Shown: positions 2,121-64,000 of the stretch, in pieces | Layout of the letters: the number at the start of each line of letters is the position of its first letter | Numbering within the stretch: position 1 is the first letter of the stretch | Origin: a virus | Lineage: Duplodnaviria; Caudoviricetes | IMG/VR virus record: IMGVR_UViG_3300035501_000169 | Location: 1-64,000 of that record | DNA: 64,000 bases | Reading direction: 5' to 3' (one strand) | Translations under genes and position numbers: made by a program | The notes under the pieces: generated by a model | What the model was told of the DNA's origin: nothing | The model's database searches: none | What the model saw: only the letters and a program-made list of their open reading frames with translations

Positions 2121-5100
2121 TTAACTATTTATAAAATCATAAATGACATCAATACCAAAATCAGCAGCACCATAATTATTAGAGCCTTCAATTGTTATTT
2201 CACGAATAGAATCCATTCCTTGAAGATTAACTTCTTCTAGATTAGGTTTATTCGTAATAGCTAATCTAGTAAGATTAGCAGGAAGGTTCAAAACTTTAAG
2301 ATTATCAGTAGAAGGAAGAATAAATTCTTCTACACGATTATCATTACGAGCTTCTAAGGTTTCAAGTACAGGGAAAGCAGTAAGATTGATTGTACCACTT
2401 AAATTACTAATACCAGCAATATTAAATTTCTTACAACATCCAAACACCAGACCTGTAATATTAAGGTCAGTTAAGTTAGGATTATTATAATCATACTTAT
2501 TACCGTCAGCATCTTCTACTTGTTCATATCTACCAAGATTAAGTTCTTCAAGATTAACAAGATTTCCCCAACCTGTATAAATAGAACTAATATACCAATG
2601 TGATAAATCATTAATAGTTTTAAGACGTTTACAACCACGAATACCTACACGGAAGTCACCACCACTTTCATTGACAATATTATCAGCATTTGTCTTTAGT
2701 GTTAAGATTTTACTATTTCGACCAACAACAATATTGTTTTCGACAGTTTCGTCTACATCAATAAAACCACCACCATGAAGCGTATTACCTATTGTCATAT
2801 AAGCATATGTACGTTCATAAGCTGTAAGATCAATAGCCCAACGCTTAGTTCCGTTAGCTCCAGTATGCCAATATTTGTTACCAGCATCAGGAATATTAGA
2901 ATAACCGCTAACGTTAAACTGAACATTATCAGTAGTAAAGTCACTAGATGCTCCACCAAACACATAGTTTTCGCCACCTTTAAAATAACTACGATTCTTA
3001 ACAAACCATTCATTATGTTCTTTAGCAGAACCATGAGCTTTTTGATAATCAGAACTAATACTTGTATATGAGTATTCAGAGTTAGCATTATAAATCATAG
3101 CATTATACAAGTCAACTTGATTATCATGCATATATTTAAGAATACCTTCTGAAGTTAAAATACCACCTTGGAAAAGAAGATTATAAATAGTCTTAATTTC
3201 TTCAGAGAAACAATCAAATACAAGAGTCCAAAAATCAGGACCACGACCATTATGTTTACCATCATAAAGTCCGTCGCTGTAAAGAACAGTATAAAGGAAT
3301 TTAAATAGGTTATCATTATCACAACCCCAAGAAGAGTCAAAGTCATAACCAATAAGACGAATAAGTTTTCGTTTAAATCCTTCATAATCTTCTGTCATAT
3401 CAAACGTTCCTGCAAAATGTGTCCAAAATTGATTCTTAACATCTTGGTCACACATAAGAGCGTCATCAATCATGACAGCATTCATAAGAATTTGATTGAC
3501 TACGCAATAGAAACATAGTTCTTGATAGAATTTACTCTTACGATTAGAAGCATTATCTACAACTGAAACTCCTTTAATTGTAATCTTATTATTATAATTA
3601 GGGTCACGTTGACCATTCAAAGCTTGGTCACCAATGTTATTAGGAGAACAGTTATAAACAAAATCGAATAGACGCTGCATTGGACCAGTAGTTTCAAGTC
3701 CTCTATTTGTAGCATCCTTCCCCGTAGGAACAATATCACCACATACAGTGTCCATGTCAGGATAACGATATTCCAAATGAGAAGTACCAGAAGTACCATC
3801 TCCTTTCCAAACACCACCTTCGCTAATATCATAAGTATGGAAGTTGCAAATAGCAGAAGCATTATCACGGAACTCAACAGAGAATGTTTCATCTTCTTCA
3901 TCGTTATTCCAAGTTCTAGTACCATCTGCGTTTACAGTCCAATAACCACCAAAACCAAATACACGCATATTAGTTTTATCAGTTATAAGGTCAAATTGAC
4001 CAGCAAAAGCTGTGGTAGCTGCATTAGAAGATGGGTCACGAAGAATACTACTACTATCAGTACGTTTCATTTCAAATGCTATAGAAGGAATACCATCGAC
4101 ACATTGTCTAGTTTTAACCATAGCAATTTGTTCAGTACGAGTAAGAGAAGGAAAGTTTTCAACAACAGAAGCAAGTTCTTTGCGTTGAGGAGGAGTTAAA
4201 CAATCTTCGTATATATATTCTCCTTGAACTTGAACACTAGCAAGATAACGAGCAGCATCTTCATACATTTTAGCAGAAGGAAGATTGCGAGCTTGAGTAG
4301 ATTCATTAGGGTTCTTCTTCATAGTAAGAAGATAACAAGGTAGAGAATCAACACCTGGAATAAAGAACACATAACCACCTTTACCGTATTCAGTATATTC
4401 AGCAGAGAATGTTTGAGAAAGAGAATCAAACCAGTGAAGTCTAACAGTACCACGAACATCCCAACGGGTATTACCTTTAGTTGAGTCTTTAGTAGAAGTA
4501 CCTTGACGTCTTGCTCTAAGGCTACCAGGAGTAGCACCCTCTATCCAATAAGACTGTGTTGGGTCGATAATACCAACACCTTTATCATTTACAGTAAAAC
4601 GATAAATATACCAATCTTGTCTATCTGTAGTATTAGTAGCAGAAGTAGAACCTTGGAAACCTCCTTCAGGAATGTTATTTCCAACAAGACTTACATTATT
4701 ACAAAAATCTGTAGCTACACATACTCCAAAATTAATAGAGCCTTGAGCTTGTTCCGCAAGATATTTACCATAAGCAATAGCTTGTTTAAGAGTTATTACA
4801 GGATTACCACTTCCGTCTATTTCATAAAAGTTATTCTTATTGAACAAAGCAGACATATCTCCAGCATCATCTAAGTCCATAGTACGAGTTTGAAGAACTT
4901 CAAATGCTGTCATATAAGAAGTATAATAACGGAAGTCATAAAGGTCAAGTGCAGCGCCGTCACCGCCAAATACTATTTCAGTTCTATTAGCTAAAAGCTG
5001 AGAAAGACTTTGATTAGGAATAATTCCAAAACCTGCAATTTCGCCATTAATATAATAACGGGCTTCATGTTTAGTAGCCTCACCATCACTATAATAAGGT

Positions 5101-7417: not shown

Positions 7418-8165
7418 ATAATAATTCTTTTTCTACAACATCAACTTCACCTTTATAATGAACTACTATCATAAATGTATGAGTAGTATTCATTTGAATA
7501 TTAGTACAAGTCAAGAAAGAAGTAACTTGTTCTCCATCAAAATAATAATCAACTGTAACTGCAGAAGGCTTAAGAAGTTTACCATCATAATAAAAATTCA
7601 TATCAGCACAAGCAGTAGCAACTTCGTCAATTATATCATAACGAGGAGTCATTTCAACATATAGACCTTTAGACTTATCATCCTCTTCTGATATAGGAGT
7701 ATCATAAGTAGGAGTAACATCTGTAGAATCTAATTGGAAGTGTTCATTAAAACCATTATTGAGTTTATGTTCAAGAAGCTCCCCTGTAGAAGAGTCAATC
7801 TCAAACTTAGGTCTTTCGCCGCAACTAACAACAGCTTTAAGATGACCTGTTTCATCAACTGGGAAGACAAAACTAGTAGAATTATCTTTACCTTTATAAA
7901 GTTGATTTAACTTAGCTTTAATATATTTAATAATAGTTTCAGCAAGTTTAGTATTACCTAACTTACGAGCAGCTACTGCTGCATTAAACATATTAAAACA
8001 TTCAATAACACCACTATTTTTATCTGTGCAATTAGCTTTACAATCTAAAAGCATTTCATAGCCATAATCAGCTAGTAGTGCAAGTATTCTATGATAAACA
8101 CAAATGTAATCTGCTGGAACAGTTACATAAACGTATTCAAGTTCTATTTGTTTAAAATTACTCAT
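7398..8165 (-). CDS. Hypothetical structural-module protein
   Basis: 255-aa ORF overlapping its neighbours in the operon. Confidence 0.75.
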   Translation of the reverse strand: MSNFKQIELEYVYVTVPADYICVYHRILALLADYGYEMLLDCKANCTDKNSGVIECFNMFNAAVAARKLGNTKLAETIIKYIKAKLNQLYKGKDNSTSFVFPVDETGHLKAVVSCGERPKFEIDSSTGELLEHKLNNGFNEHFQLDSTDVTPTYDTPISEEDDKSKGLYVEMTPRYDIIDEVATACADMNFYYDGKLLKPSAVTVDYYFDGEQVTSFLTCTNIQMNTTHTFMIVVHYKGEVDVVEKELLYAIPNN

Positions 8166-12369: not shown

Positions 12370-13845
12370 TTAGAGTACGCACTTCAATTGCAACATCTTA
12401 GTAGCGTTATTTACTTGCAAGCCATAGCTATTCTTAATTTCATAACGTGACATATCAATCTCGGTAGAAATAGAATTAGTAGGAACTGCGCCCCAAGATG
12501 CAGGAATATCAGTAAGACCTTTCAGAACACCACATTTATAAATTTGACCTTTCTGACGAACTTTACGAACATTACGAACACCTTGATAAGTTGACATATC
12601 AATAAGGAAAGCTTGATGAGATGTCATAGGACGACCAGAACGAGGATGAATCATACCATTAGCTTTGGCATTTTCAGCAAGAGTACCATGGTCAAGGAAA
12701 GGAAGATGTTGAACAGTGATAATGTGATTATCAACAGTCTTATAACGACGGAAGTATTTACCATAAGAAAGACCACCATTGAAATCTTCAATCATCTTGT
12801 CACCAAGAGGAGTAGCAAAACCTTCAGAACGAGCATCATTACGAATAGCTTGGTCAAAGTCCTCCATAAAGCCTTTACCACCAGCAAGAACTACTTCCAT
12901 AGTACCTGTATCGGTATCTTTATCAAGAACATCACCAATACTACGTTCAATTTTATTCAAGGTAAGAACTTCACCATAAGTATCATAGTTAGATTCGCGA
13001 CAAATCTGCATCATACCTGCAGTATGAGGAATAGGTTGACCATTATCAGGGTCTACAAGAAGAACTTCACCATTTTCATTACGGTTATATTCAGCCAACC
13101 AAAGACGCTCTTCATCCATAATACGACAAGTAATATCATGTTGACGCATCTCTTCATTAATCCAAAGGTTAGTAGTACCACCACCTTTAGTCTTAAACTC
13201 ATAAGTTACAACAACATTAGAAATATTACCAGCAATTTCTTTAGAATAACGGTGGAACTCAAGTTGACTTGTCATCTTACCAGGACCCATAACATTACTT
13301 CTATTACCTTTAGAATAACTTTCACTAATGGTAGGAGCAGTCATAGACCAATATTTACCAACAGCAAGATTTTCAAGGTCAACAAAAGCATTAGGATCAG
13401 GATTGGTAAGTTTAAGACGATAAAGATAACCACCATGAGGACCTTCACCAAGGTCTTTCATAATACGAACCTGAGTAACACCATCAGGAGCAATAAGACC
13501 ATACTGTTCAATAAGCCAATGAGTAGCAAATTCAACATCAAACATAGCACCACCTTTACCAGGAGTAGTATTTGCTGTATTGAAGTAACGAACATAATCA
13601 TTAAACTTCATTCGACCCATAGTCTTCCAAGTCCATTGAACAGTTGCAATATCAACAACACCAGCACTACCTTGACCTTCAGTAAGGAATGTTAGAGGAA
13701 AACGGTCATCATCCATACCGTAAGTATAAGTAAGGATGTTATTAATTTCCTCTGGTTTAGATAGCATAAGATGAGCAATGGTTTCTTCATTAGAATAACC
13801 ACGGTCATCATAGTTACCACGAGATACTTCTCTAAGTTTGTACAT
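12370..13845 (-). CDS. Major capsid protein
   Basis: 491 aa with crAss MCP-like motifs (FPLTFLTEG, ITVQHLPFLDHG); position after portal and gene 77-like. Confidence 0.9.
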   Translation of the reverse strand: MYKLREVSRGNYDDRGYSNEETIAHLMLSKPEEINNILTYTYGMDDDRFPLTFLTEGQGSAGVVDIATVQWTWKTMGRMKFNDYVRYFNTANTTPGKGGAMFDVEFATHWLIEQYGLIAPDGVTQVRIMKDLGEGPHGGYLYRLKLTNPDPNAFVDLENLAVGKYWSMTAPTISESYSKGNRSNVMGPGKMTSQLEFHRYSKEIAGNISNVVVTYEFKTKGGGTTNLWINEEMRQHDITCRIMDEERLWLAEYNRNENGEVLLVDPDNGQPIPHTAGMMQICRESNYDTYGEVLTLNKIERSIGDVLDKDTDTGTMEVVLAGGKGFMEDFDQAIRNDARSEGFATPLGDKMIEDFNGGLSYGKYFRRYKTVDNHIITVQHLPFLDHGTLAENAKANGMIHPRSGRPMTSHQAFLIDMSTYQGVRNVRKVRQKGQIYKCGVLKGLTDIPASWGAVPTNSISTEIDMSRYEIKNSYGLQVNNATKMLQLKCVL

Positions 13846-13881: not shown

Positions 13882-15174
13882 TTATAAAATAATATCATCA
13901 ATACTTGATTTACGAGAAGGGTTTTTAATAACCTTAACAGACTTAGTAGAACGTTGTTCTTTTGACTTAACACGCAGTTGACGAACTTTCTCTTCTTTAA
14001 CTGCCATATCAATTAAATTTTTATACGTTCCACCCGTAAACATAAGCCAAGCGTCAAGTATTTCACGAGTGAGATATTCATCATCAGAAAGTTTACTAAG
14101 GTCATACTGATAACCAGTAAGACGTTCACCACTTTCAGTTTCTTTAGGATTAGAAAGATAAGCAAAGAAATCGTTAGGAGTAACTACAACTTTTTTACCA
14201 TCAACTTCTTTAGTAAAGCTTTCAGGTATTTTGTAACCTCCAATTACACGACCTTCTACAACTTTATTAACTCTATCCCAATAATCAGCAACTTCTTTTT
14301 GTTGCTGTTCACGTTTTTCTTGTGCTTTAGTTTCAATATCTTTACGAGTTGCAGCATCTTTTTCAACTAATGCTTGAAGCTGACTTTTAGCCTCATCGTA
14401 AAGACTTCCACTATCACGAAGATATTTAATATAATTGTCGTTAAGACTTTTGTTACCAAATTCTTGTGCAGCCATACGAATAACAGCAACAAGTTGGTTT
14501 TCATTATCTTTATCAAGTTTAATACCACTACGGTCAGGTATTTCACCAAAACCTCTAGGAGTACCATTAAGTTCTACATAATCCTGAAATTGTTTAAGTA
14601 GAGGATTATCAGAATAAAGGCGGTTAACTGCTGCATCTTGAAGTTCTTTAGAACGAAGTTCGATAACAGCATCAACATACGATTTAACACCTGCTACATC
14701 ATTAGTAAACTCGATAGGTTTACCAGCTTCATCAGTTACTGTAACTCCAAGTTCTTTCTGAAGAGAATTAATATCAAGACTAGAATCAGAACCATCAGTT
14801 TCTTCAACTTCTACAGATTTAAGCCATTCAGCTACATCTTTAGCCTCTTTAAATACTTTTCCTTCAGCATCAACAATATCTCCATTTTCAGCAACCGTAT
14901 AAGTATTACCGTCTACTTCAATAGAATCTCCAGCTGCAAGCTCCCCCGTAGGAGGATCTGCGTTGTTATCATTCGCTGTATCAGAATTATCAGCAGGCGG
15001 AGTATTATTAGAATCACCGTCTTTGCTAGTAATATCATCAGCATTACCACCGTTAAGATGAGTCTTATCATCTTGATTGCTTTCACCACCGCCATTATTC
15101 GCAGGGTTCTGTACAGTATCAGAATTATTTCCTTGAATAACTGTACTTCCAAAATCAATATCAGCTGTTGGCAT
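13882..15174 (-). CDS. Acidic protein upstream of MCP (gene 77-like, putative scaffold)
   Basis: 430 aa, disordered acidic N-terminus and coiled-coil C-terminus; synteny. Confidence 0.65.
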   Translation of the reverse strand: MPTADIDFGSTVIQGNNSDTVQNPANNGGGESNQDDKTHLNGGNADDITSKDGDSNNTPPADNSDTANDNNADPPTGELAAGDSIEVDGNTYTVAENGDIVDAEGKVFKEAKDVAEWLKSVEVEETDGSDSSLDINSLQKELGVTVTDEAGKPIEFTNDVAGVKSYVDAVIELRSKELQDAAVNRLYSDNPLLKQFQDYVELNGTPRGFGEIPDRSGIKLDKDNENQLVAVIRMAAQEFGNKSLNDNYIKYLRDSGSLYDEAKSQLQALVEKDAATRKDIETKAQEKREQQQKEVADYWDRVNKVVEGRVIGGYKIPESFTKEVDGKKVVVTPNDFFAYLSNPKETESGERLTGYQYDLSKLSDDEYLTREILDAWLMFTGGTYKNLIDMAVKEEKVRQLRVKSKEQRSTKSVKVIKNPSRKSSIDDIIL

Positions 15175-20573: not shown

Positions 20574-20936
20574 TTATTTCAAAAGTAACAAAATAGTAGC
20601 AATTATACCAACTACTCCTACACCAAAACAAACATTTCTTTGACGAGTTACTTTCTTGCAATCTTTAAGAATTTGTTCATTTATAGCAAGATGATTGTTT
20701 ATAATTATACTATCATTAGAAACTACTTGTCTTAGATTAGCATTAATTTGTTTTTCATAATCTAACTCTATAAGTTTAAAATTAACTACTCTTAAATCAT
20801 CATAAGCAATCATAACACTATCTTTAGGTTCTTCAAGCTCCCCCGTAGAAAGGTTGGAATTATTTGCCAATGAGTTGATAGAACAACTTAAGAGTGCTAT
20901 CATTATCAAGACTTTTAACTTCAATTGTCTTAGCAT
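20574..20936 (-). CDS. Lipoprotein spanin candidate
   Basis: Signal peptide MLRQLKLKVLIMIALLSC with lipobox, coiled coil and C-terminal TM; overlaps the upstream TM gene, next to the endolysin candidate. Confidence 0.55.
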   Translation of the reverse strand: MLRQLKLKVLIMIALLSCSINSLANNSNLSTGELEEPKDSVMIAYDDLRVVNFKLIELDYEKQINANLRQVVSNDSIIINNHLAINEQILKDCKKVTRQRNVCFGVGVVGIIATILLLLK

Positions 20937-21153
20937 TTTTAATACTATCTAAATTATTTATTTCAATAATAAGTTTATCATTCTCTATTGACAAAGAATC
21001 AATTTGAAGTGTAGCAGTAGGAACTACATCTTTTTCATCCTTAGTAGGATTTAAAGCTTTAATTATTCCTACTACTACACATACAAACCCAATAATCAAT
21101 AGAAACCCAATAAACCAATTAAGTATGTAAATTTTAACATCTTTAAGTGTCAT
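20860..21153 (-). CDS. Inner-membrane spanin candidate
   Basis: N-terminal TM helix plus periplasmic coiled coil; directly follows the endolysin candidate. Confidence 0.55.
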   Translation of the reverse strand: MTLKDVKIYILNWFIGFLLIIGFVCVVVGIIKALNPTKDEKDVVPTATLQIDSLSIENDKLIIEINNLDSIKNAKTIEVKSLDNDSTLKLFYQLIGK

Positions 21154-23386: not shown

Positions 23387-23882
23387 CGTAATTTAAAATT
23401 TCATATTCGTTATCTACAGCTGTAACATTATAAGTAGCATACATAAAAAGTCTAGCAAAAACATCACCTTTTTCTATACATAATCTCTTATAAAGTTTTC
23501 TATTACGACTAACAGCCATACTTACAACATATTTATAATATCTTTCTTGTTTAGCACGTTTACTATTATCGTTTCCAAGTTGTTTTCTAAACATTATGTA
23601 CTGATTATTATCAAGAGTATCTTTAGCTTCTTGAATAAGAGCTTGTTGCTCAGGAGTAGCTTCCATAAGTTTAGTTTTAGGTATTCTAATATTTCCAATA
23701 AAAGGAATACCAGTCCAACGACCTTTATTTAAAAAAGTAGCAGCATCAACTTCACATTGTTCAACAATAGCTAAAACTATTTCTTTATCTACAATGTTTT
23801 CATCAATACAGTCTATAATGTCTTGTTTTTTACAAACTCTAACATCATAACCACCATTAGGAAACTTATAAGTATCTGCCAT
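23376..23882 (-). CDS. HU/IHF-like DNA-binding protein
   Basis: 168 aa. N-terminal helices followed by GIPFIGNIRI, resembling the HU/IHF IxGFGxF strand; basic C-terminus. Confidence 0.55.
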   Translation of the reverse strand: MADTYKFPNGGYDVRVCKKQDIIDCIDENIVDKEIVLAIVEQCEVDAATFLNKGRWTGIPFIGNIRIPKTKLMEATPEQQALIQEAKDTLDNNQYIMFRKQLGNDNSKRAKQERYYKYVVSMAVSRNRKLYKRLCIEKGDVFARLFMYATYNVTAVDNEYEILNYDEQ

Positions 23883-43038: not shown

Positions 43039-43105
43039 TCTAATGTAGTTCCTTATGATATAATTTGTCTTAGGAACTACATTTCTTTAGCTCCCCGTAG
43101 AAGAT

Positions 43106-47977: not shown

Positions 47978-49039
47978 ATGAGTCGTTATACAGTTAATGG
48001 TGCCCCTTGGGCAATTGGTAAAGATGTTTCTGATTGTAAAACTTCTTTTGAAGTTATGCAAAAAGCTGGTCTTGATTTCATTGTAGACAAATGTGACCTT
48101 ATGGCTCGTATGCCATTTGGTATTAAACGTAATAATGTCGTAAATGAAATTGCAGGTGAATTTTCTCGTGATGGTTATATCTATCGAGAATTAACAAATG
48201 CTTATGCTACATATCGTGCTGATACAAGTGAACCTCTTGGTCTTGTTAAAGCTAAATATGAAGTAGTTCAAAATCGTGATGCATTTAGATTCTTCGATGA
48301 TGCTATCGGAGATGGTATGGCACAATGGGATAAAGCAGGTATTCTTAATGGTGGTCGAAAGATTTATCTTAGTGCTAAGCTTCCTGTTGAAACTCGTGTA
48401 GGTCAAGATAAAATTGATAATTACCTTGTATTTAGTAATTCACATGACGGAACTAGTTCTGTTAATATTATGTTTACTCCTATTCGAGTTATTTGTACTA
48501 ATATGCTAAATTCGGCACTTAAATCTGCTGATAGTTATATTCGTATTCGTCATACTCAATCTGTAAGAGAGCAACTTCGTCATGGAGCTGAAATTCTTAA
48601 TATTGCTTGTAAACACGCTCAATCTGCTCAAGAGTTTTATGAAAGTCTTACTAAGATTAGAATGAGTGATGACCAAGTTATGGAATATCTTGCTAATCTT
48701 CAACTTAATGATAAAGAACGTGAAGCTCTTCTTGAGTTTGATAATAAAAACGGTTATAAGAAACTAATTCTTAAAGACTATCTTACAATGGAACGTACTG
48801 GTATTAGCCAACGTAAAGCTAATCAAATTGCTAGTACTTTTGAGTATTATCTTGATGGTATTGGTCAGAAACACATTGCAGGCACTGCTTGGGGTGCGTA
48901 TAATGCTGTAACTGGTTTCTATTGTAATGTAGCTAATCTTGAAGGCGAGAAACGAGTAGATTCACTTCTCTACGGGGGAGCTAATAGCAATATGATTAAA
49001 GCTATGAATCAAGTTATTGCTTATAGTGATGCTGCTTGA
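47978..49039 (+). CDS. DUF932 family protein
   Basis: LGLV..KYEVVQN, NSHDG, TPIRVICTN, IRHT, GTAWGAYNAVT. Confidence 0.85.
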   Translation: MSRYTVNGAPWAIGKDVSDCKTSFEVMQKAGLDFIVDKCDLMARMPFGIKRNNVVNEIAGEFSRDGYIYRELTNAYATYRADTSEPLGLVKAKYEVVQNRDAFRFFDDAIGDGMAQWDKAGILNGGRKIYLSAKLPVETRVGQDKIDNYLVFSNSHDGTSSVNIMFTPIRVICTNMLNSALKSADSYIRIRHTQSVREQLRHGAEILNIACKHAQSAQEFYESLTKIRMSDDQVMEYLANLQLNDKEREALLEFDNKNGYKKLILKDYLTMERTGISQRKANQIASTFEYYLDGIGQKHIAGTAWGAYNAVTGFYCNVANLEGEKRVDSLLYGGANSNMIKAMNQVIAYSDAA

Positions 49040-49106
49040 TGAGTTAAACTTAATTATCGCCCTCCCCCGTAGAAAGGTGAAATTTTAGTTATGTCACATT
49101 AAAATT

Positions 49107-51527: not shown

Positions 51528-51564
51528 AAAAATAGTTCTGCTATCTTCACAGACAACAGAACTA
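51528..51564 (-). terminator. Terminator of the leftward LysM/RNAP unit
   Basis: Minus strand TAGTTCTGTTGTC-TGTGAA-GATAGCAGAACTA followed by TTTTT. Confidence 0.75.
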
Positions 51565-51684
51565 CGCGGACTAAATCCATGCAAATATTCACCTCCTTCA
51601 AAAATTATGTCAGGACTTAAATTATTGCAAATATAATATAAAGTTGTAATATATGCTATTTTGAAATATTAATATTTCATAATT

Positions 51685-53193
51685 TTAATAGTCACCTTCA
51701 ATACTTAGACGACCACCGAGTTTATATTTATCATACTCTCGTGTTTCATATAAATTAAAACGTCTACTATAATTATTTACATTTCTAATATAAACATTAT
51801 TTTCAGGAGTGGCTGTATGATTTGTAAGTTGCTCATTATGTCCATTCCATTTATATAATAAAGCATGATAAGGATTAATAGTTATTCCTTCTTGATTTGT
51901 AAAAGTTCTGCCTTTAACCTCTGTATTATACATATGAGCTAAACGAGCAATAGTTGCAATAGCAGAACCACCAGCTGTTTTTATAGAATTATTATCAATT
52001 CCAAGCTTAGAATAAATCGCTTGAAGCTCTTTATTATCACCTTTATTTTTAATCTGAGTATATCCTCTACTAATAGCGTGATTTGTACCTTTTATTAATT
52101 GTATCATTCCTTCTCCTAATCGTTGTTTCATACTATATCTGTAAGCAGTTCCAAACTTACTTTCTTGTTCTGCTAAACCTAAAGCAAGTTCCGCTAAATG
52201 ATTATATTCATCAGAAGTAAGACCAAATTCTTTTTGAAGTTGCTTTTTGTTATTTACAATACTTTGAGCAAAATTCTTTCTATTTGTATCATATCTGTAA
52301 TCACCTGTATTAGTCCAAGTAAGTTTAAGAGGAGTATAACTTCTATCTATAGTTGTATTATAATCATCCCAGTTTTCCATAGAATGACCAGATTCACTTA
52401 TATCGTCTTTGGTATAATTACCGTAAGGATTATCTGCCGTAAAATTAAGTTTACCACCTTTAAGAACAAATCTAGAACCTTCTTTTTCAGGTAAAGTATA
52501 AACCCTATCTCCTACTCCAAGAAATTGTGTCATATCTTTAAGACTTTGTTTTCCAATACGAACACAGCCATTACTAAAACTAGCAGTATTTCCTATATGA
52601 AAAGAAGATGCAATATTATCATCTACTAAATTATCAGATTGATACCATTTTCCATTTTCATCTTTCTTCCATTCTTTAACTTTTCCTACTTCGTTTTGAT
52701 TATTAACACGACCTCTAGTAAAACTAGGTGCTCCGTGATATTCTCCAGTAGATGTTATTTGTGTAATACCAGCTGGTGTTGAATTATTACCTCCATAATT
52801 TTCAATTCCACTATTTCCTCTATAAGTTACAGTATTATAATCATTTCCAGATTTACCAAAACTTATATCATTTGTTGAATAAAGTTCGTTATTGTCTTTA
52901 TCATATACAGTAAGTTTTCTATTCTTTTTATCAACTATAACATAATTACTGTTATGTTTATAACCTTGTATAGCAGATACATTATCAAGATTAAATCTGC
53001 TTTCTCTTTGACGTTCTGCTCTAATGTCAACAGTTTCTTTTATTTTATCTGGTTCAAGACGAAGTTCGTCACCAGGATGTATCATATTTTTTTTTGTTGG
53101 ATTAAGCTTAATTAGTTCATCTAAACTAATATTATTATCTTTAGCAATTTTCCAAAGACTATCACCTTTTATAACTTTATATTTTTTAGCCAT
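51685..53193 (-). CDS. Virion peptidoglycan-active protein: LysM + L,D-transpeptidase-like + lysozyme-like domains
   Basis: Start moved to MAKKYKVIKGDSLWKIAK (LysM). IVDK...TPAG...FH..SNGCVR (YkuD). AEQESKFG...GYTQI (transglycosylase-like). Confidence 0.8.
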   Translation of the reverse strand: MAKKYKVIKGDSLWKIAKDNNISLDELIKLNPTKKNMIHPGDELRLEPDKIKETVDIRAERQRESRFNLDNVSAIQGYKHNSNYVIVDKKNRKLTVYDKDNNELYSTNDISFGKSGNDYNTVTYRGNSGIENYGGNNSTPAGITQITSTGEYHGAPSFTRGRVNNQNEVGKVKEWKKDENGKWYQSDNLVDDNIASSFHIGNTASFSNGCVRIGKQSLKDMTQFLGVGDRVYTLPEKEGSRFVLKGGKLNFTADNPYGNYTKDDISESGHSMENWDDYNTTIDRSYTPLKLTWTNTGDYRYDTNRKNFAQSIVNNKKQLQKEFGLTSDEYNHLAELALGLAEQESKFGTAYRYSMKQRLGEGMIQLIKGTNHAISRGYTQIKNKGDNKELQAIYSKLGIDNNSIKTAGGSAIATIARLAHMYNTEVKGRTFTNQEGITINPYHALLYKWNGHNEQLTNHTATPENNVYIRNVNNYSRRFNLYETREYDKYKLGGRLSIEGDY

Positions 53194-53254
53194 ATCTTGA
53201 ATATAATTAAGTAGAAAGGTTATCAAGTTGACAACCTTTCTACAGGGGAGCTTG

Positions 53255-56200: not shown

Positions 56201-59200
56201 TTCTTCAATTCGTTCATTTACTCTTTGCCAAACACGAAGATAATTACCGCCAATAGCAATAGCTGCATCTTTTTCAGCTTGATATTTATCCATATCATAA
56301 ACAAACTCAACATGGTCTTTTATAAATTTGTGAACAGATTTACCATTACTAGAATTTTCAGTCTTTTTAATATCCTCTAATTCTTCATAAAGTTTATCAA
56401 GCTTTTCAAGTTCCTCAGTAGTCATTTTAGCAGTATAAACTGTTTTACTACTATTGTCATAATAAGGAAGAAGTATTGCGTTGATTTCATTAACCTTAGC
56501 AATATAATCTTGGTTTTTAGCACCATTAAGAGTCATACCTTTATAAAAAGCAGAACTAAAAATAGTGTCATCTGTAGGAGCACTATTTATAAGACTTCTA
56601 TCACTAAAAGGTTGTCCTTCTCTAATATTATAATTAGCAAGTTGTTCAGCTTTTATTTTAGCAATATCTTCATCTGATATTTTAGTAGCATCTATAACGC
56701 CGTGACTATCATAAAGATTATCACGTTTAGCTATAGCGGAAAGAATCTGTCTACCACTTCTTTTTTCACGAAGAATAGCAAAAGCATCGTTGATTAACTT
56801 TTGAGTTTCTTCACCCACAACATAACGAGCATTGTGTTCAACCCATTCTTTAGCTTTAACATAATCATCATGTTTCATAAGTTCAGAAACAGGAGTAGTA
56901 ATGTTACCAGTACTATCTCGCATTTCATAATTAGATATTATATCAAGATTCTTTTCAAGTTCTTCATCGAAACCAAATTTAGCATCTTGAGCAAAATATT
57001 CTTTACGCAAATCTCGCATAGCAGAGAGATGAGAAGATAAAGCATTAGCAGCTTCTATACTCATAATAGCTCTGTCATCTCCTCTTAACGGATTATTAGG
57101 GTCACTATTAGAAAACTTCTCTTCAAACTGCCCCGTAGAAGAGTTAAAGAAATAAGGAGCAGTTAGAGCATCCATTTCTTTCTTAACTTGTTTAAGTTCA
57201 TCTTGATAGCTTTCTTCAAGAGTTCCATTTACGGCATGACTAAGAATATCTTTACGCCTAGCATCTAACTTTTTATAAACACTATAAGTTTTACTATAGT
57301 GAGTAAGCATATGATTTTCTAATTCAAGCTTACGTTGATAATAATCATCAACAAGAAGTTGATTAGTATGTTCAAGTTTAAACTTGTCATAATCATATTT
57401 TGCTTTAAGATGTTCTATACTACCTTCACCAAATTCGCTTCGTTTAGCACCAATATCTTCTCGAAGTTGATTTAGTTTATCTATAAATTCTTGATTATAA
57501 TCTTGAACAAATTTTCCATCTTCATCAATTATATGCTTCCAATTTATAGCATTAGCACCAGCTTTACCTTTAATTTCTTTGACTTTATCTCTAAACTCTC
57601 TAATACGTTTAGTAGCAAGCATCTCCTTAGCTCTAATGTCACCCATAACTTCTTTAGTTATAATTTGAAGAAGAGGACTAGAAGTTTCTTGAAGGTCATT
57701 AACCCAAGCATCAAAAGCAGCAGCACTATGATAACCATCCAAAAGGCTAAGTATATCACCTTGAACTAGAGGATTTTCACTAAGTTTAGCTAAATACTCA
57801 TTTGCAAATCTTTCTTCTGCATTATTTATAATAGTAGCATTCTGAAGTTTGTTAATAGCTGTTTTAATCTTAGTAAGATAATTTCTAATAGCAGGGTCTT
57901 CAGAATCTATATCAAGGTCATTAATCATTCTATAATTTCGTACAAAAGCACGAGCATCAAGAAGGGTTTTAAGAAAACGTTTACGCTCTTCAGGATTATT
58001 ACGAATTAAATCAATAGTTTCAGAATCGTTCACACTGTGATAATGACCTTCCGCATCAGGAATAAAATATTCCAAATCATTTAGAATTTTATCAGTAGTA
58101 ACCTGAACATATTCTGCTGTAGTAGTTATAACTTCGTTAACATTATTTTTAACAGAAGCATCAGTAGATTTTATATCTTTATCATGAAGTCGTTTTAGAG
58201 CTTTAGCAGCAGACATATCATTTTCGGATATTTGACGACGCCACATAGTTTGCATAGAATGAGTTCCAAGTTCTGTTACACTAGAATGCATAATTTCATT
58301 TGGAGTTTCTTCTTCATCTACTTCTACAGTAGCTTGTCTTTCGTTGTAAGGAGTAATAAGAAAAGCATCATTGACTCTGTAACCTGCAAGTTGAGCATTT
58401 TCCATTATAGCTTGAATTTGTGGGTCACGTTCTTGAACTTCTCTATGTTCATTATTCTTTCCAATATACTTCTTATTATACTTACTAAAATCTACTTTTT
58501 GAATTACATATTGTCTACCATTAATAGTTTGAATACTACCGTTAGCAGCACTAGTATATTTTATGTAATTAGCCAAAGCAGCACTGCGAAGATATAACCT
58601 ACCTCTAGGATTAGTTTTAAAGAAGTTAGTAACTTTATTTCTAACATCTTCAAAACCACCACTATCTACAGTTCTTTCAGCATTTATATTAAATGTAGTA
58701 GCATAGGTAGAATGTTCAGCTTTATTCTTATTAACAAATTTATGTTCAGATTTTTTAGCTCTAGCTTCTTCTATAGCTCTAGAATATTCATCTGTATTAG
58801 GATTTTCATCTTCTATAGCAGAAAGCAATGCTTGATAATAGCTTTCATCAGGATTAACATTATTAGCTACGTTAACAGACCAAGTAGAACTTTCGTTCTC
58901 TTCAAGTTTATTAAGAGGATAAGCATAAATATGATTACCATATTCTTTTATTTTATAAAGTTTTTCAACTTTACCAAAACGAAGTTTTACATATTGATTT
59001 ACACTATAGTTTCCTTTATCACCTGTAGTAAATATAAAATCATATTTTTCAGCAAGTTCTTTTCCTTCTTTTGTAGCTAAATCAATAAGTACAATATCAT
59101 CACCAAGATTACGAGATAATTCAAATTGTTTATTAACTTTTTCAACTCTATGAGTTGCAATTTGATACATACTACTGTAATGACTTCTAACAAAATTGTT

Positions 59201-62200
59201 ACGAAGTTCATCAGTATTCATAGTATCAATATCTCTAATTTTAGTATTCAATTGATTTACAATTCCAGTTCCATCATGGTCAGCATCATCAATAAGAGCA
59301 TCATTTTTGATAACTTTATTAACAGCATTACGTTTCATTTTGAAACCTTCAACAGCAAAAGCATACTTAACAATGTCTAAACTTGCAAGAGCTATAAGAG
59401 GATTACTGTTATAGAAACATTTATTAAATTCATTATATACAGTTTCTATATTATCGTTTCCTTCAACATATTCGATAGTTTGAGCACCTGCCTTAGTCTT
59501 ACGATATTGAGTATTATTAAATAAAGTAGTACGAATATATTTAAATACTCCAGTTTCTCTAAAATGTTCTTGTATCCAAGTAACTTTTTGAGCAGGACTT
59601 AACGTAGCAAATTGGTCAATTTCTTTTTGAGTAGGATTATTAATATCTTCTACTTCAAATTCAACCATTTCACCATCTTCATTTTTAACTCGTAAGTCAG
59701 GGGATTTACCATATCCAAAGATTCTTCTACGTTCTTCTTCAACATCAGTTCCAGCTTCAAATCTGAAACCTTCACCTTGTATGTAAGTAACTTTATTTCT
59801 TACAGCATCAGTTTGACCATAAATATAATTAAGAATATAATTTTGATATTCTTTATATACTTTTTCACTTAAAGTTTTATTATCGCCTGTAAATGCTAAT
59901 TTAATTAAGCTAACATCAGAAACAAATTCACGACTTTGAGTTTTAAATAAATGACGATTTACTTTAATAGCTGTAGCTGTAGCATATTTAAGAAAATGAT
60001 GAAGAGGAGGATATGCAGAGTTCATATCACTAGAAGTTATATAATTATCAAGACCTCTAGTAACTCCAGGATAAATAGCTTCAAGAAAAGTTTGATTTCC
60101 TTTTTCTTTACTTTCTACATACAACGCAGGATGTTCTTCTCTAGATAATTCATCAATATCATCAAATACTTTATTTGTAGCAAAAATAGTTTGTTTAGCA
60201 CCAAACTTATCAGGATTACAAACACGAGCATAAGATGAAATAGAATTACCTAAATGAGAAAGTTTATTATATTGAAGTATGACTCCTAAGTCGTATAGTA
60301 ATCGCATCTTCATCTCTACGGGGGAGCTTCCTTCAAATATACCTTTATCTTTAAGTCTATCTTTAAGTCTGCTAGCAGCTATAAGAAGTTTAGCAGATTC
60401 TTTATCATCTAAACTAATTTTAAAATTAGCAGTACCAGCACCAAACAATCTAGCAACTTGTCCATTATACTTTTGAAGTTTAGTCATTATACTATCAATG
60501 GACTCTCTATCACTAACTTCTATTCCATCAATAGAAAGAAGTTCTTTAGCTAAACTTTTTATAGCAGTATGAACCGGATTTTTATTATCTTTACTATAAA
60601 TAGATTTATTGCTGTTATAAGCATCAACTATTCTACTAATACCGGGTTGCATAATAAATGAAACACCAGTTTCATAATCAGAACCTAAATCAGGAAATAG
60701 TTTATATACTTGGAAAGTTAAATCATTAACATTAGGAATAGCTCCTTCCTTAACAGCATCAAGAATATGAGCTGTAGTTTGAGAAGAATAAGCAGTAAGA
60801 ATTTTACCAACACTATTCTTGTTGTTTTTAGTCCAACCAAAAGTATTATGACTTACAACAAATACGCCGTCTGATATTTCTTCAACATTATCAAAAGTCT
60901 TTTTAAGAGCAGCTTTTGTATAACCATCTTCAGCTCTATAAACTATTTTAACTTGTTGAGCATCACTAATTGTTGGTCTAACTGTATTACAAATAGAACA
61001 GAAAGTATCACGAGTAACACTAAATGCTTTAAGTTTAGCGCCACTCATAACATCTTCTTGATATTCAGCTTGGTCAAGGAAATTATAAGGAGAACGTTGA
61101 TTACGGCGTTTAGCTATATTTTCATCAATAGAAGCATTACGAGCATTAATAATATCTTCAAAATTAGAACGAGAAAGATTTTCTTCTAATGACTCAGAAC
61201 TAGAAAGAATATCAATCATAGATTGTAATAACTGATTATTACGAGCATCTCTGTTATTTCTTTCTGTAGCATCTAGATTAGAATATTCTTGATAACTTAA
61301 AAGACCTGCGTCTTTAGCAAGTTTTTCAATATTAGCAAGACGTTCTTCTTGAAGCTCAGAAATACCATTCATAAGCTTCTCTCTATAATCTTCAGAAGCA
61401 TTATTAATGAAATCATTAATTCCTTGTCTTACTGTAATATATTCTTGAATTTGAGATTTAACATCTTCTGAAAGCTCATTATTCTCTATGTATTGAGTAA
61501 GACCTTCGACAACATTATTATTTTGTTGAGTGTATTTTTCAAGTTTAGATTTACCACTAGTATGTTTCTCTTGAAGTTTTTTAATTTCATTTCTAACTTC
61601 ATCAGGAAGAGCGTGATATTTTTCTCCTTCAGTTTCAAGCATATCGTTGTAATCCTCGTTTCGCTTATCATTGATAGCTTCTTTGAGAGATTCAATTTGA
61701 CCTTTAATCTTAGTAGATACTTTATGGTCAAGTTTACGACGAATATAAGAAAAATAATCTTGTTCTGTAACTTCTTGTTTATAAGGTATTTTTTCTATAA
61801 GACCAGTCTTTTTATTAACTTTACCTTTAAAATTAATACCATAAACAGAGTCAATATCAAAGTCAGAACCTGTTTGAGAAACCCAATCATCAGGAACTAC
61901 AATAGTTGAACCAAGAGCATCATCAGTAAAACCAACGACCTTCATAACACAAATAGATTGTTTACCTTCAGTAGGAATACGATAACCAATCATTGTATCA
62001 AGACCTGAATTTTGAAGTTCTTCTAACAATTCTTCATCAGTTTTACGACTACCATCCGCTTTTTCTCGTTTTAAACCAAAGTTATTAGCAGGAAGCATTA
62101 TTTCAATATAAGGCTTACCATCAGGATGATATTTCAAATCTTTACTATAACTTCTACTTTGAACTTGACCACTTAAAGGACTCCAACCAACATTAGTAAT

Positions 62201-64000
62201 CTGAGCAGCATGGAATCCAGGAAGTTTCTGACGAGTAATGCGAGAATTAAACATACTCTGAGCAATACTTTCAAGTTTAGTTGAAACACTGCTCAAATAA
62301 GTTGGCATCTTAGTATCAGGAACATCATCGTTTATATTAGCATTTTCAGCTAAAGTAACATAATCCATCATATTACTGTCAAGACCAAGACGAGCAACTT
62401 CTTCTTTTAATCTGTCATAAAAAAGTTGAACATCAAGTCCAGTAATATCACGTTTTCCATTTTTATCTTCGAGTTTAAGATTTCCATTTTCATCAAGTTG
62501 AAGATTAAGTTCATCAACTAAATCTTGGAAACTTTCTTTAATATTAGCAGAATAAAGTTTGAAGAACTCTTCTTTTTTAGAATAAAGCTCACTACCAGGA
62601 ACGATATTATCAAGTATTTTCTTCATAATCTGAATACCTGCTTTATTCTTATTATCTACGTGTTGAGGAGTTTCTTGTTGAGTGTAAAGATAATTATAAT
62701 TATATTCTTCTACAGCACCAGTAGCATTAAGTCTAAAGTCTTCAACGTTTTCTTCTGTTATTTCCCCTTTATCATTCCAAATAGTAAGAACATTACACTT
62801 ACCAGCTTTAGAAGTTTCTTCAGTATTTAATTGGTCAATACCTTTTTCTTTCATCAAATTATAAACTTGTTCAAGTTGAGTTCCTTCAATTAAACGAGGA
62901 ACAAGAACAAATTCAGCATTTTTAATTTGACGAGGAGCAATTACGCCAAGTTTTTCATTGTAATGTTGGTCATAATAAAAGTTCTTTTGTACTTGAATAA
63001 ATTCACCAATTACATTAGCATCTAGAGGTTTAGTTTCATCAAGAACAGCTTCAATAAGAGGCATATATTTTTCAAGTTGACCTCTAGCAGACACACGTCT
63101 AATCCATTCTTCAAATGTAATATAAGATTGAGCGTCATTTACAGTAGTTCCGTTAAAACCACTCATCATATTACGAGCTTTCTCGGTAGCTGCTTTTACA
63201 CTCATACCACCTTCATGAAGAGCATCTATAAGTTTCTTAGTAACAACACCATCTTTAGTTTTCTTTTTAGCATCATAAATAGAACATTCTTCACTAGTAC
63301 GAACTGTATTTTTGATAGTTACTCCTCTAAACTTATTATACTGTCCTATTTCTAAGGTTTCAGTAGTTCCATCAGCTTTTTTACGAACAAATGTTTTATC
63401 ATTAAGTCGACTTTCTATTTGTTCTCTAGGAGTAGAAAGATTCATAGTATAATCTACAATACCATATGGAACACCAGAACCTTGAGATTCTTTAGCACGT
63501 TTAAGAAAAGTTTGAGTATCTTTATAAAACTTAGTATCTCCTTCAAATAAATCATTAAAAGAAACATACATGAGATGATGATTTAAAGCAAATTCTGCCA
63601 CATTATCATCTGTAAGTAAATGTTGTGGAATAAAATCTTCATATTGCGTAATACGTTCTCTCGTATCTTCAACATAATCATTTATAAATTGAGAAAGATA
63701 TTTATCCACAATATTTTCTTGTTCATCTGTAAGTTCGACACTAACACCTTTTTGACCACGTTTAGTATGCAAATAAGTGTTATTAGCTCCCCCGTAGAGG
63801 AAATCAAATGCTTCTTCTAATATCTTCTCACCATAATTAACTTCACTTACATTTCCATTTTCATCTGTATGAGTAATAACAAATCTATCACTATGAAATA
63901 CAGAACCTGTTAATTTACTGATACCATTTTCAGTTTTATCTAAAATTGTTTTACCTTTTCCAACATGATATACAGCATATAGTTTACGAGCTGTATTTTT
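53255..64000 (-). CDS. Giant virion RNA polymerase (crAss vRNAP); 5' end outside window
   Basis: Frame stays open upstream of 63772 to the window edge (>3580 aa). GYRIPTEGKQS and catalytic GSDFDIDS at ~61850-61864. Confidence 0.9.
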   Translation of the reverse strand, partial: KNTARKLYAVYHVGKGKTILDKTENGISKLTGSVFHSDRFVITHTDENGNVSEVNYGEKILEEAFDFLYGGANNTYLHTKRGQKGVSVELTDEQENIVDKYLSQFINDYVEDTRERITQYEDFIPQHLLTDDNVAEFALNHHLMYVSFNDLFEGDTKFYKDTQTFLKRAKESQGSGVPYGIVDYTMNLSTPREQIESRLNDKTFVRKKADGTTETLEIGQYNKFRGVTIKNTVRTSEECSIYDAKKKTKDGVVTKKLIDALHEGGMSVKAATEKARNMMSGFNGTTVNDAQSYITFEEWIRRVSARGQLEKYMPLIEAVLDETKPLDANVIGEFIQVQKNFYYDQHYNEKLGVIAPRQIKNAEFVLVPRLIEGTQLEQVYNLMKEKGIDQLNTEETSKAGKCNVLTIWNDKGEITEENVEDFRLNATGAVEEYNYNYLYTQQETPQHVDNKNKAGIQIMKKILDNIVPGSELYSKKEEFFKLYSANIKESFQDLVDELNLQLDENGNLKLEDKNGKRDITGLDVQLFYDRLKEEVARLGLDSNMMDYVTLAENANINDDVPDTKMPTYLSSVSTKLESIAQSMFNSRITRQKLPGFHAAQITNVGWSPLSGQVQSRSYSKDLKYHPDGKPYIEIMLPANNFGLKREKADGSRKTDEELLEELQNSGLDTMIGYRIPTEGKQSICVMKVVGFTDDALGSTIVVPDDWVSQTGSDFDIDSVYGINFKGKVNKKTGLIEKIPYKQEVTEQDYFSYIRRKLDHKVSTKIKGQIESLKEAINDKRNEDYNDMLETEGEKYHALPDEVRNEIKKLQEKHTSGKSKLEKYTQQNNNVVEGLTQYIENNELSEDVKSQIQEYITVRQGINDFINNASEDYREKLMNGISELQEERLANIEKLAKDAGLLSYQEYSNLDATERNNRDARNNQLLQSMIDILSSSESLEENLSRSNFEDIINARNASIDENIAKRRNQRSPYNFLDQAEYQEDVMSGAKLKAFSVTRDTFCSICNTVRPTISDAQQVKIVYRAEDGYTKAALKKTFDNVEEISDGVFVVSHNTFGWTKNNKNSVGKILTAYSSQTTAHILDAVKEGAIPNVNDLTFQVYKLFPDLGSDYETGVSFIMQPGISRIVDAYNSNKSIYSKDNKNPVHTAIKSLAKELLSIDGIEVSDRESIDSIMTKLQKYNGQVARLFGAGTANFKISLDDKESAKLLIAASRLKDRLKDKGIFEGSSPVEMKMRLLYDLGVILQYNKLSHLGNSISSYARVCNPDKFGAKQTIFATNKVFDDIDELSREEHPALYVESKEKGNQTFLEAIYPGVTRGLDNYITSSDMNSAYPPLHHFLKYATATAIKVNRHLFKTQSREFVSDVSLIKLAFTGDNKTLSEKVYKEYQNYILNYIYGQTDAVRNKVTYIQGEGFRFEAGTDVEEERRRIFGYGKSPDLRVKNEDGEMVEFEVEDINNPTQKEIDQFATLSPAQKVTWIQEHFRETGVFKYIRTTLFNNTQYRKTKAGAQTIEYVEGNDNIETVYNEFNKCFYNSNPLIALASLDIVKYAFAVEGFKMKRNAVNKVIKNDALIDDADHDGTGIVNQLNTKIRDIDTMNTDELRNNFVRSHYSSMYQIATHRVEKVNKQFELSRNLGDDIVLIDLATKEGKELAEKYDFIFTTGDKGNYSVNQYVKLRFGKVEKLYKIKEYGNHIYAYPLNKLEENESSTWSVNVANNVNPDESYYQALLSAIEDENPNTDEYSRAIEEARAKKSEHKFVNKNKAEHSTYATTFNINAERTVDSGGFEDVRNKVTNFFKTNPRGRLYLRSAALANYIKYTSAANGSIQTINGRQYVIQKVDFSKYNKKYIGKNNEHREVQERDPQIQAIMENAQLAGYRVNDAFLITPYNERQATVEVDEEETPNEIMHSSVTELGTHSMQTMWRRQISENDMSAAKALKRLHDKDIKSTDASVKNNVNEVITTTAEYVQVTTDKILNDLEYFIPDAEGHYHSVNDSETIDLIRNNPEERKRFLKTLLDARAFVRNYRMINDLDIDSEDPAIRNYLTKIKTAINKLQNATIINNAEERFANEYLAKLSENPLVQGDILSLLDGYHSAAAFDAWVNDLQETSSPLLQIITKEVMGDIRAKEMLATKRIREFRDKVKEIKGKAGANAINWKHIIDEDGKFVQDYNQEFIDKLNQLREDIGAKRSEFGEGSIEHLKAKYDYDKFKLEHTNQLLVDDYYQRKLELENHMLTHYSKTYSVYKKLDARRKDILSHAVNGTLEESYQDELKQVKKEMDALTAPYFFNSSTGQFEEKFSNSDPNNPLRGDDRAIMSIEAANALSSHLSAMRDLRKEYFAQDAKFGFDEELEKNLDIISNYEMRDSTGNITTPVSELMKHDDYVKAKEWVEHNARYVVGEETQKLINDAFAILREKRSGRQILSAIAKRDNLYDSHGVIDATKISDEDIAKIKAEQLANYNIREGQPFSDRSLINSAPTDDTIFSSAFYKGMTLNGAKNQDYIAKVNEINAILLPYYDNSSKTVYTAKMTTEELEKLDKLYEELEDIKKTENSSNGKSVHKFIKDHVEFVYDMDKYQAEKDAAIAIGGNYLRVWQRVNERIEEIDGKDTVVPNKYIYGYAVPKGYKKDGTGDNTYVDKKKTDALRTVRAYTTSTKTEYYYQKYKEMQAKGKEEFNAWYNANHIYNPYTHAKEPIQCWTRLEVNQMADDGEHTEAGMWVPAFGQLETRPKDGRDGEPDYLNHNYKQGASTAANYKKEGFTPQQHDNLPFGVDNINFDSTDYSNKNNMTDAEREMKELFENTLRSMATTNSAKRFLDRGYMASRAKSPERDAKFYAKEAAKMLGWIEGASGKEDWTEDVDYATDETIDMPMMSTLKSKDSVKVNYKMPDKKDYEDENAYNEAVKTYNENKKKAEEQNAKIHRELLDDNWESVMEDFIEKAAHFNAIQDNKYMLFYAKNMLDKIDVFVKNEGFNNLQKEGSRNAEGETRYVTKKDTRLQEQYVNWIRRLVYDQWKKPNNRLTRTANIMQSLTSAKFMMLNITGGIANVTVGETQILGESLAREYFGMDTYLKGKATWQTSLPSFFADMYSERASSLGSAIVKFMNVVDFDENSGLVHVPDAEEYMKRARDLMFSPQAMGEHFMQNGAMFSMIHSHRLFINREKDSNGKLSYTLKNEAEHMRDANEKALQDVLTDSQKQLWKKFTEYETKDANNKKEYAWFRKDLTTEFANLYLNDEQKKEFIDKRKDYQNKAKAEFNDDTEHPTLMSQLKLGKDGKLDFKEDSKLMEMGDEAYQLLGRFKGRVISVNKKIHGVYDRLGAAKWESYWWGGIVMQYHKHLYPGIMKRYRRQGYFNEERGTVEKGCYASIKDFLSLPLHKKKFVNKLKADTNISDSELQSVQGIQNIIKNYIEFALHVKTNYQMLPEYDRANIRRAIGDIAGVASALCMAIALRVIAGGDDDEGIIYNLAMYECDRLASESFMYNPFGLMSEGKKLWSSPVAVENGIEDIFSSLGFIAQWCMQGDDFDPYYQTGLYAGENKLWVNVRRQIPVYHAINMVERLNRSNKYYKLGDNMLSIVPVKDIADWIRK

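Follow-up and report, generated by a model that had tools for sequence, protein, structure and literature searches.

The crAss-like gut phage recorded as IMGVR_UViG_3300035501_000169 is represented by one contig of 94,454 bp, and the window considered here comprises its first 64 kb. Dispersed through its genes and spacers, on both strands, is a short word, CTACGGGGGAG, which is under purifying selection as DNA and which is a real, apparently undescribed recognition signal acting at the DNA level. As a preliminary description of the window had supposed, no account of such a word for the Crassvirales was found in the papers searched, and text matches to the 11-mer string were unrelated primer listings. 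The present analysis measured, on its own data, the codon-level peptide changes that go with the word, the conservation meta-profile around it, how spacing differs in nine genomes between copies on the same and on opposite strands, the probable extension to crAss001 and a Crevaviridae genome, and the lack of a comparable word in two Suoliviridae genomes. We tentatively read the word as a strand-specific site for a co-evolving phage DNA enzyme, which might use it to make entry points—by a nick or by priming/loading—on the phage genome.

Selection on the word as DNA

The window DNA has a GC content of 31% (roughly 30% had been given) and holds nine exact copies of CTACGGGGGAG, five copies with one substitution, and one with a one-base deletion. 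The preliminary description had listed the same 15 copies; its nine exact ones stand, whereas its six others, taken together as copies with one change, divide into the five substitutions and the deletion (its site 43088, now 43091–43100). Its coordinates are too low by 5 bases for plus-strand copies and by 0 to 3 for minus-strand copies, since it counted in the bases that flank each copy on its low-numbered side. The estimate that far less than one copy should occur by chance is borne out by 100 dinucleotide-preserving shuffles of the window, which give 0.00 exact copies against nine observed and 0.08 copies with at most one mismatch against 14. Beyond the window, further exact copies lie at 69856, 79888, and 87646 on the plus strand and at 72284, 80413, and 88724 on the minus strand. 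The whole genome thereby carries 21 copies, 13 on the minus and eight on the plus strand, in agreement with the earlier remark that both orientations occur.

These sites are discrete. In a weight-matrix scan with a cut-off of 12, all genomic matches above the cut-off score 17 to 41, while five shuffled genomes show zero matches even at 8. The informative span of the word runs from about −5 to +12, and its ~15 bases consist of a pyrimidine tract, CTACGGGGGAG, and a closing S-T. The word is asymmetric, a pyrimidine tract being followed by a G-run, and bears no dyad.

Eleven of the window copies lie within open reading frames (ORFs) and four between genes; for the whole genome, 17 of 21 are within ORFs. 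The three registers noticed before in the 11 genic copies are reproduced, and credible genes throughout the genome use only these: S/P-T-G-E eight times and Y-G-G four times, both in sense, and S/T-P-V-E four times in antisense (35839, 60316, 69856, and 79888). The copy at 87646 falls into a fourth register, within a doubtful ORF of 55 residues. In one antisense register, a TAG stop would arise from the word. Altogether, eight of the 21 copies (38%) are antisense.

The view that selection acts on the DNA rather than on the protein is supported by a codon-preserving shuffle, by the profile of conservation between orthologs, and by peptides that follow the spelling of the word. The shuffle—300 replicates over the whole genome, each keeping every protein and the codon usage of each gene and leaving intergenic DNA untouched—yields on average 2.0 exact copies, all of them intergenic, where the genome itself has 15; it regenerates zero coding copies. 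With at most one mismatch, the mean is 3.4 against 20 observed.

Most sites are found at orthologous positions in the closest public genomes, cr271_1 (Hacihdavirus) and ctcc615 (Wotdevirus)—both Obtuvirinae of the Intestiviridae within the Crassvirales—where the flanks are 66–78% identical. Over 27 orthologous site pairs, identity amounts to 0.97 within the 11-mer but falls to 0.65–0.70 over flanks of up to 150 bp, and to 0.47 at positions −12 to −6. Hence, conservation is confined to ~15 bases and includes synonymous positions.

Where a relative re-spells the word, the peptide follows the DNA. At the same codons, the proteins of cr8_1, which has a different spelling, change from S-T-G-E to F-T-G-G-L-E, from S-T-P-V-E-E to S-R-P-V-K-E, and from Y-G-G-G to Y-G-G-D. 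The two lineage-specific sites at 7779 and 57128, on the other hand, align codon for codon with relatives and show no indels, which means that sites come and go via substitution and do not arise via insertion.

Lineage spellings and spacing on each strand

Spelling and spacing were surveyed in nine Intestiviridae, one Crevaviridae, one Steigviridae, and two Suoliviridae genomes. All nine Intestiviridae carry a spelling around the constant core CYT-Y-TAC-GGG (C-Y-T-Y-T-A-C-G-G-G), with a variable 3′ tail and far 5′ flank. The genome under study, cr271_1, and ctcc615 share CTACGGGGGAG (21, 19, and 21 copies, respectively). The other spellings are ...CTACGGGGGA(A/G)C in cr3_1 (26 copies), ATCCTC(T/C)ACGGGG(A/G)GT in the prototype crAssphage Carjivirus communis (31), CCT-TTA(T/C)GGGGGAA in crAss002 (32), CCT-TTACAGGGG in Rudgehvirus jaberico (26), CCTTTTACGGGG(C/G)GG in cr8_1 (26, or 27 with a terminal-overlap duplicate), and CCCTTTACGGGCCAG in ctbg_1 (19, or 21 by a looser pattern). 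Such lineage-wide re-spelling points to a private reader that co-evolves with the word.

The system probably extends to a Crevaviridae genome and to crAss001. In the Crevaviridae genome cr127_1 (NC_055886), a ~40-nt GC-rich word containing GCCCTTGTGGCCA occurs in 10 copies, which are mostly intergenic and often form opposite-strand pairs, several of them 170–560 bp apart (examples, in piece L009, are 11356, 11911, 19698, 28697, and 28871). A part of this word, GGAACACCTC, resembles the 3′ end of Bacteroidota 16S rRNA. The cultured Steigviridae phage crAss001 (MH675552) shows CTTCTGGAG—the word of the genome under study minus its central ACGGG—in 29 copies, where an order-3 Markov model predicts 1.8; both strands, all six frames, and spacers are represented. 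Its minus-strand spacing is regular (coefficient of variation (CV) 0.46, P = 0.0002) and the strand alternates in 20 of 29 steps, so that, judged by its sequence, crAss001 may carry a short version of the same lattice. No comparable word was seen in the Suoliviridae cr1_1 and cr50_1: weakly over-represented words such as CTGGAGTAA have no regular spacing there and are for this reason not counted as the same phenomenon.

The regularity becomes most apparent when each strand is considered separately. In each of the nine Intestiviridae, gaps between sites on the more densely occupied strand have a CV of 0.29–0.45 against ~0.9 for random placement (P ≤ 0.002). In the genome under study, the 13 minus-strand sites run round the circle with a CV of 0.30, while the eight plus-strand sites are restricted to 32–88 kb. 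Each of the nine genomes has sites on both strands, about one word per 7 kb per strand (roughly 5–9 kb); one strand bears a complete lattice round the circle and the other a patchier one, the complete one being the late-gene coding strand in eight of nine genomes. The lattice spans the whole genome without clustering near any one region. The largest gap previously noted in the window, over 23.9–32.6 kb, is real.

Sites on the same strand keep a minimum distance of 2.0–4.2 kb, depending on the genome, and are never closer than 2.0 kb. Opposite-strand neighbours, in contrast, come as near as 23–191 bp; pairs at 23–200 bp are commoner than chance, and intergenic DNA repeatedly holds such close pairs. 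The strands alternate more often than chance predicts in seven of nine genomes, the exceptions being cr3_1 (P = 0.08) and ctbg_1 (not significant), and in the genome under study sixteen consecutive sites, from 32639 to 88724, strictly alternate. Pooled over both strands, spacing is also more regular than random (CV 0.49–0.63). The combination of same-strand-only exclusion, regular per-strand spacing, and free placement on the opposite strand suggests a coverage-type selection and a reader of one strand or direction. A complete lattice on one physical strand would fit a process running one way round a concatemer, of which rolling-circle replication is one.

Relative to transcription, 125 sites are sense and 96 antisense (n = 221; 43% antisense). 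Sense sites form a complete lattice in each of the nine genomes, the widest gap being 9–17 kb, and antisense sites are patchily spread in five. The sense excess may simply arise because two sense frames but only one antisense frame are usable.

Individual sites and genomic context

Nucleotide identity of the genome under study to cr271_1 and ctcc615 is ~77% across replication genes. Its minus strand encodes tail, capsid (12370–13845), portal, and terminase genes at 1–24.5 kb and, at 51.7–94.4 kb, a giant ORF of 4574 residues from 53255, whose ctbg_1 counterpart is annotated as a putative RNA polymerase, together with an ORF of 2960 residues. Early and replication genes occupy the plus strand at 25.4–51.3 kb. 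Pfam and PHROGs matches comprise a superfamily 1 (SF1) helicase (30498–31967), a primase, DUF932, Sipho_Gp157, and two endolysin-like proteins (21150–21767 and 51685–53193); an exonuclease (21764–22765) shows a weak, sub-threshold PD-(D/E)XK match, and RecT and Gam-like annotations sit on counterparts in relatives. The minus-strand ORF at 1–2119 runs off the start of window and contig, which indicates that the record represents a genome that is circularly permuted or was opened at an arbitrary point.

Among the late genes, the first minus-strand copy (3717–3727; one substitution, G to A at position 9) is read in sense as P-T-G-K by a tail-region ORF of 1515 residues. The one-substitution copy at 7779–7789 (minus, sense, S-T-G-E, in an ORF of 255 residues) is the first of the two lineage-specific sites, the aligned codons of relatives bearing no site. 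An exact copy at 14941–14951 (minus) reads P-T-G-E in sense within an ORF of 430 residues adjoining the capsid gene and is orthologous in cr271_1 and ctcc615. The exact minus-strand copy at 20838–20848, sense within an ORF of 120 residues adjoining the terminase gene, has orthologs in cr271_1 and ctcc615 and, spelled its own way, in cr8_1. The exact intergenic copy at 23930–23940 (minus) lies 47 nt upstream of the ORF 23376–23882, pairs with a partial inverted copy downstream, and is orthologous in relatives.

Within the replication module, an exact plus-strand copy (32639–32649) is read as S-T-G-E in sense by an ORF of 182 residues, whose counterparts in cr271_1, cr8_1, and ctcc615 are annotated as uracil-DNA glycosylase; at the matching codons, cr8_1 has its own spelling and an altered peptide. 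The one-substitution copy at 35839–35849 (minus) is antisense to an ORF of 471 residues—counterparts in relatives are annotated as SNF2 ATPase/helicase—where it yields S-T-P-V-E; it is orthologous in three relatives, cr8_1 having S-R-P-V-K. The ORF of the DnaG-type primase bears an exact plus-strand copy (40552–40562; sense, Y-G-G) that is orthologous in cr271_1, ctcc615, and cr8_1. At 43091–43100 (minus), the copy with a one-G deletion—four Gs instead of five—is intergenic, between a terminator-like hairpin (43045–43080) and an ATG at 43106, and orthologous in ctcc615. Two exact copies form a convergent pair 92 bp apart: 48970–48980 (plus), at the end of the DUF932 ORF (sense, Y-G-G) and present in ctcc615 but not in cr271_1, and its intergenic partner 49062–49072 (minus).

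The remaining copies of the window concern the giant ORF. A one-substitution plus-strand copy (53240–53250) is intergenic just beyond its 3′ end, with its 5′ half in a 15-bp terminator-like stem (53211–53243). Inside the ORF lie a one-substitution copy at 57128–57138 (minus, sense), the second lineage-specific site, gained via point changes; an exact copy at 60316–60326 (plus, antisense, S-S-P-V-E), orthologous in cr271_1 and ctcc615; and an exact copy at 63787–63797 (minus, sense, Y-G-G), orthologous in these two and, with its own spelling, in cr8_1.

The intergenic terminator-like hairpins (23895–23940, 43045–43080, 51532–51565, and 53211–53243) tend to start with GTAG and finish with CTAC—the tetranucleotide with which the motif also begins—and the motif itself forms one hairpin arm at 53240 and at 23930. 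At the gathering threshold, Rfam finds nothing at the motif and gives a single tRNA-like match (29598–29664, plus strand, 44.9 bits), which ARAGORN does not report; relatives annotate tRNA genes at the corresponding boundary of early and replication genes. The family-B DNA polymerase (33003–35330, plus) is one intact ORF of 775 residues here, but is annotated in two pieces in cr271_1 (~390 bp apart) and cr127_1 (~620 bp apart), which suggests an intron or insertion in these genomes.

Possible roles and the search for a reader

The only described phage signals of this sequence character are nick-associated motifs, and it is on this account that a nick or priming role is favored, tentatively, for the crAss-like word. 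The motifs of tf/Rembedalsseter and phiKMV are asymmetric, 9–20 nt long, located in genes and spacers, conserved across the family, and number 4–14 per 40–45 kb (PMC11780129). Together with those of T5, the phiKMV-like motifs and the tf/Rembedalsseter WACTRTGAC resemble the crAss-like word as over-represented, phage-group-private words that occur in and between genes about once per 3–10 kb and persist across relatives with little nucleotide identity (PMC11780129). Those motifs are confined to one strand, not evenly spread, and associated with physical nicks, whereas the crAss-like word lies on both strands in a regular per-strand lattice, with opposite-strand copies as little as tens of bp apart.

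On this tentative reading, each strand would require one copy per ~5–9 kb; a second nearby copy on the same strand would add nothing, and the copies of the two strands would be independent. At each site, the enzyme would make a strand-specific entry point—a nick with a 3′-OH, or a primer or loading point—which might then be used when the phage genome recombines or replicates as concatemers. The reading of the sites by a phage protein, its restriction to one strand or direction, and a nick or primer as the outcome are steps we infer.

Several points weigh against such entry points. Sites occur on both strands (13:8), while the nick motifs of known phages are one-strand only, and opposite-strand pairs 23–100 bp apart would, if both were nicked, risk double-strand breaks. 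Described primases recognize ~3 bases, and the described initiation signals on single strands are structured, whereas the word has no conserved hairpin. A Pfam/PHROGs scan of 21 window proteins gave no nickase, relaxase, or other site-specific enzyme. Finally, the nine spacing tests are not independent samples, as the genomes share ancestry and many sites.

The same scan showed no site-specific nuclease, recombinase, or ParB-like protein, and a comparison of gene content revealed no protein whose presence cleanly matches the distribution of the word. In a relative-rate test of 20 core families, an ORF of 265 residues (37809–38606, plus strand) and the SF1 helicase score 1.67 and 1.66, respectively, against about 1. 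Their extra divergence on the two branches with derived spellings is a small effect and a weak lead. The 265-residue ORF lies between ORFs whose counterparts in relatives are annotated as RecT and SSB. Its protein family, ~155 clusters when grouped at 50% identity, occurs in each of the nine genomes of the Intestiviridae, to which it is confined apart from a faint match in the Crevaviridae. The predicted fold is confident (predicted local distance difference test score of 93). Foldseek gave no match in the PDB, and a profile search of PDB sequences and a protein atlas returned nothing; VIA-align reached only Z ≤ 4.5, with B3/MraZ-type DNA-binding barrels at Z 3.0–3.5, below a useful threshold. 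By its predicted model, this protein may represent a new fold within the replication module.

A broader version of the entry-point idea, which we consider possible but rather doubtful, would make the words hitherto unrecognized, order-wide, strand-specific "coverage" marks of the Crassvirales: a private, re-spelled word every 5–8 kb per strand that a directional phage machine might use to start, license, or protect replication and recombination. The CTTCTGGAG lattice of crAss001 would then belong to the same system.

Bacterial Chi, the signal of RecBCD/AddAB, offers another precedent for a sequence read by a machine that travels along DNA. It is likewise G-rich, orientation-dependent, dispersed through genes, and of similar density per orientation; in E. 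coli, its density is of the same order as one word per 5–8 kb per orientation. By analogy, a phage helicase-nuclease, or a modified host enzyme, might resect ends until it meets a correctly oriented word and then hand the end to a RecT-type recombinase, sparing phage DNA and leaving host DNA unprotected. The orientation-specific, G-rich word with its coverage-type spacing in both orientations would suit such private end-protection, which fits the geometry as well as nicking or priming does. The gene content offers an SF1 helicase, a Sipho_Gp157-type protein, the exonuclease with its sub-threshold match, and the RecT and Gam-like annotations of relatives; a match to the helicase turned up in every Intestiviridae genome and in the Crevaviridae one, and crAss001 and cr1_1 gave none. 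No RecC/AddB-like recognition subunit was identified among the window proteins scanned. Yet, Chi spans 5–8 nt, is common to the host chromosome, and is irregularly spaced, whereas the crAss-like word has ~15 informative bases, is private to the phage, and shifts its spelling between phage genera. Helicase and nuclease are, moreover, separate genes in different modules, and one Suoliviridae genome lacking the word has an SF1 helicase match while the word-bearing crAss001 has none. Altogether, we regard a Chi-like role as unlikely.

The preliminary description had instead proposed that a protein binds the word in duplex DNA to compact, segregate, protect, or help eject the genome, by analogy with matS/MatP, parS/ParB, or SlmA; a sliding clamp-like loading site would be a variant. 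From this interpretation, a phage-private, lineage-spelled signal on DNA remains, but not the analogy. The signal is indeed genome-wide, private, and—by its pooled spacing—roughly even, its lineage spellings fit protein–DNA co-evolution, and parS, matS, and SlmA sites are likewise dispersed, sequence-specific, and read by a dedicated protein. However, these sites are dyad-symmetric, dimer-bound, few or regionally clustered, and orientation-blind, whereas the crAss-like word is asymmetric, shows no regional clustering, and is arranged strand by strand in a lattice round the whole genome. Since its spacing depends on the strand—exclusion acts on the same strand only and opposite-strand pairs approach to 23–200 bp—a strand-blind compaction protein would not produce this geometry. 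Pfam and/or PHROGs searches of 21 window proteins, a partial scan with libraries that are insensitive for crAss proteins, revealed no ParB-, MatP-, or SlmA-type domain. Such an organizing role is improbable, and a dyad-symmetric duplex site of this kind is excluded by the asymmetry and the strand-dependent spacing of the word.

Equally improbable is a transcription signal on DNA, that is, a promoter, pause, or termination/antitermination site for the phage RNA polymerase or a modified host polymerase. The complete sense lattice would suit the re-loading of processivity factors along operons tens of kb long, and several intergenic copies lie within or beside terminator-like hairpins. But 96 of 221 sites are antisense, many of them conserved at orthologous codons, most copies of the genome under study lie within ORFs, its early region bears none, and the sense excess is explicable by coding constraints. 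Middle promoters of crAss-like phages are host sigma-type, intergenic, and sense (preprint 10.1101/2020.03.07.982082). A promoter or terminator proper was thus rejected, given the 17 of 21 copies inside ORFs, the eight of 21 in antisense, and these published promoters. The stoperators of Cluster A mycobacteriophages are similar in layout: asymmetric 13- to 14-nt sites, ~20–30 per genome in genes and spacers, whose spelling co-varies with the phage's own protein. These are, however, oriented with transcription and serve a temperate-phage repressor, whereas the crAss-like sites are antisense in 43% of cases and come with no evident repressor.

Reader-matched dialects are also known from the DNA uptake sequences of Neisseria (DUS) and the uptake signal sequences of Pasteurellaceae (USS), over-represented 10- to 12-mers that occur in several frames and often as inverted pairs in intergenic hairpins. 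DUS and USS belong to competent bacteria, recur about once per kb, and show no same-strand exclusion; the phage has no uptake machinery.

It appears very improbable that the word acts in RNA, as a hairpin closed by a UACG-type loop that some factor would bind or cleave in phage transcripts. As RNA, the motif strand reaches −4.5 to −7.1 kcal/mol in seven of nine spellings, a more stable fold than that of its complement or of shuffles (−2.2 to −3.1 kcal/mol for the latter); G-U pairs allow the pyrimidine tract to pair with the G-run. But cr8_1 and ctbg_1 keep the pyrimidine tract while the 3′ arm has changed, so that their folding energies equal those of shuffles; loops vary (UACG, CACG, UAUG, and UACA), 43% of sites are antisense, and the crAss001 word is unable to form the hairpin. 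With the stems of cr8_1 and ctbg_1 broken and no compensatory change, a conserved UACG-loop hairpin was rejected as a shared property of the words. As DNA, the word has folding energies of 0 to −2 kcal/mol, equal to shuffles. A mobile element of the miniature inverted-repeat or repetitive extragenic palindrome type is dismissed, as occupied and empty orthologous positions align without indels and no hairpin is conserved.

Whether or not strand-specific entry points prove to be its purpose, the signal overrides codon choice, and even amino acid sequence, at ~20–30 places per genome. It has kept its codon positions from genus to genus while each lineage changed its spelling throughout, and would mark a core DNA transaction with a dedicated, undescribed reader. 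The Intestiviridae include the most abundant human gut viruses. For crAss-like phages, the word provides a lineage "barcode," and for genome engineers, a constraint when recoding. If crAss001 and crAss002 indeed share the system, it would offer a direct experimental handle in cultured phages.

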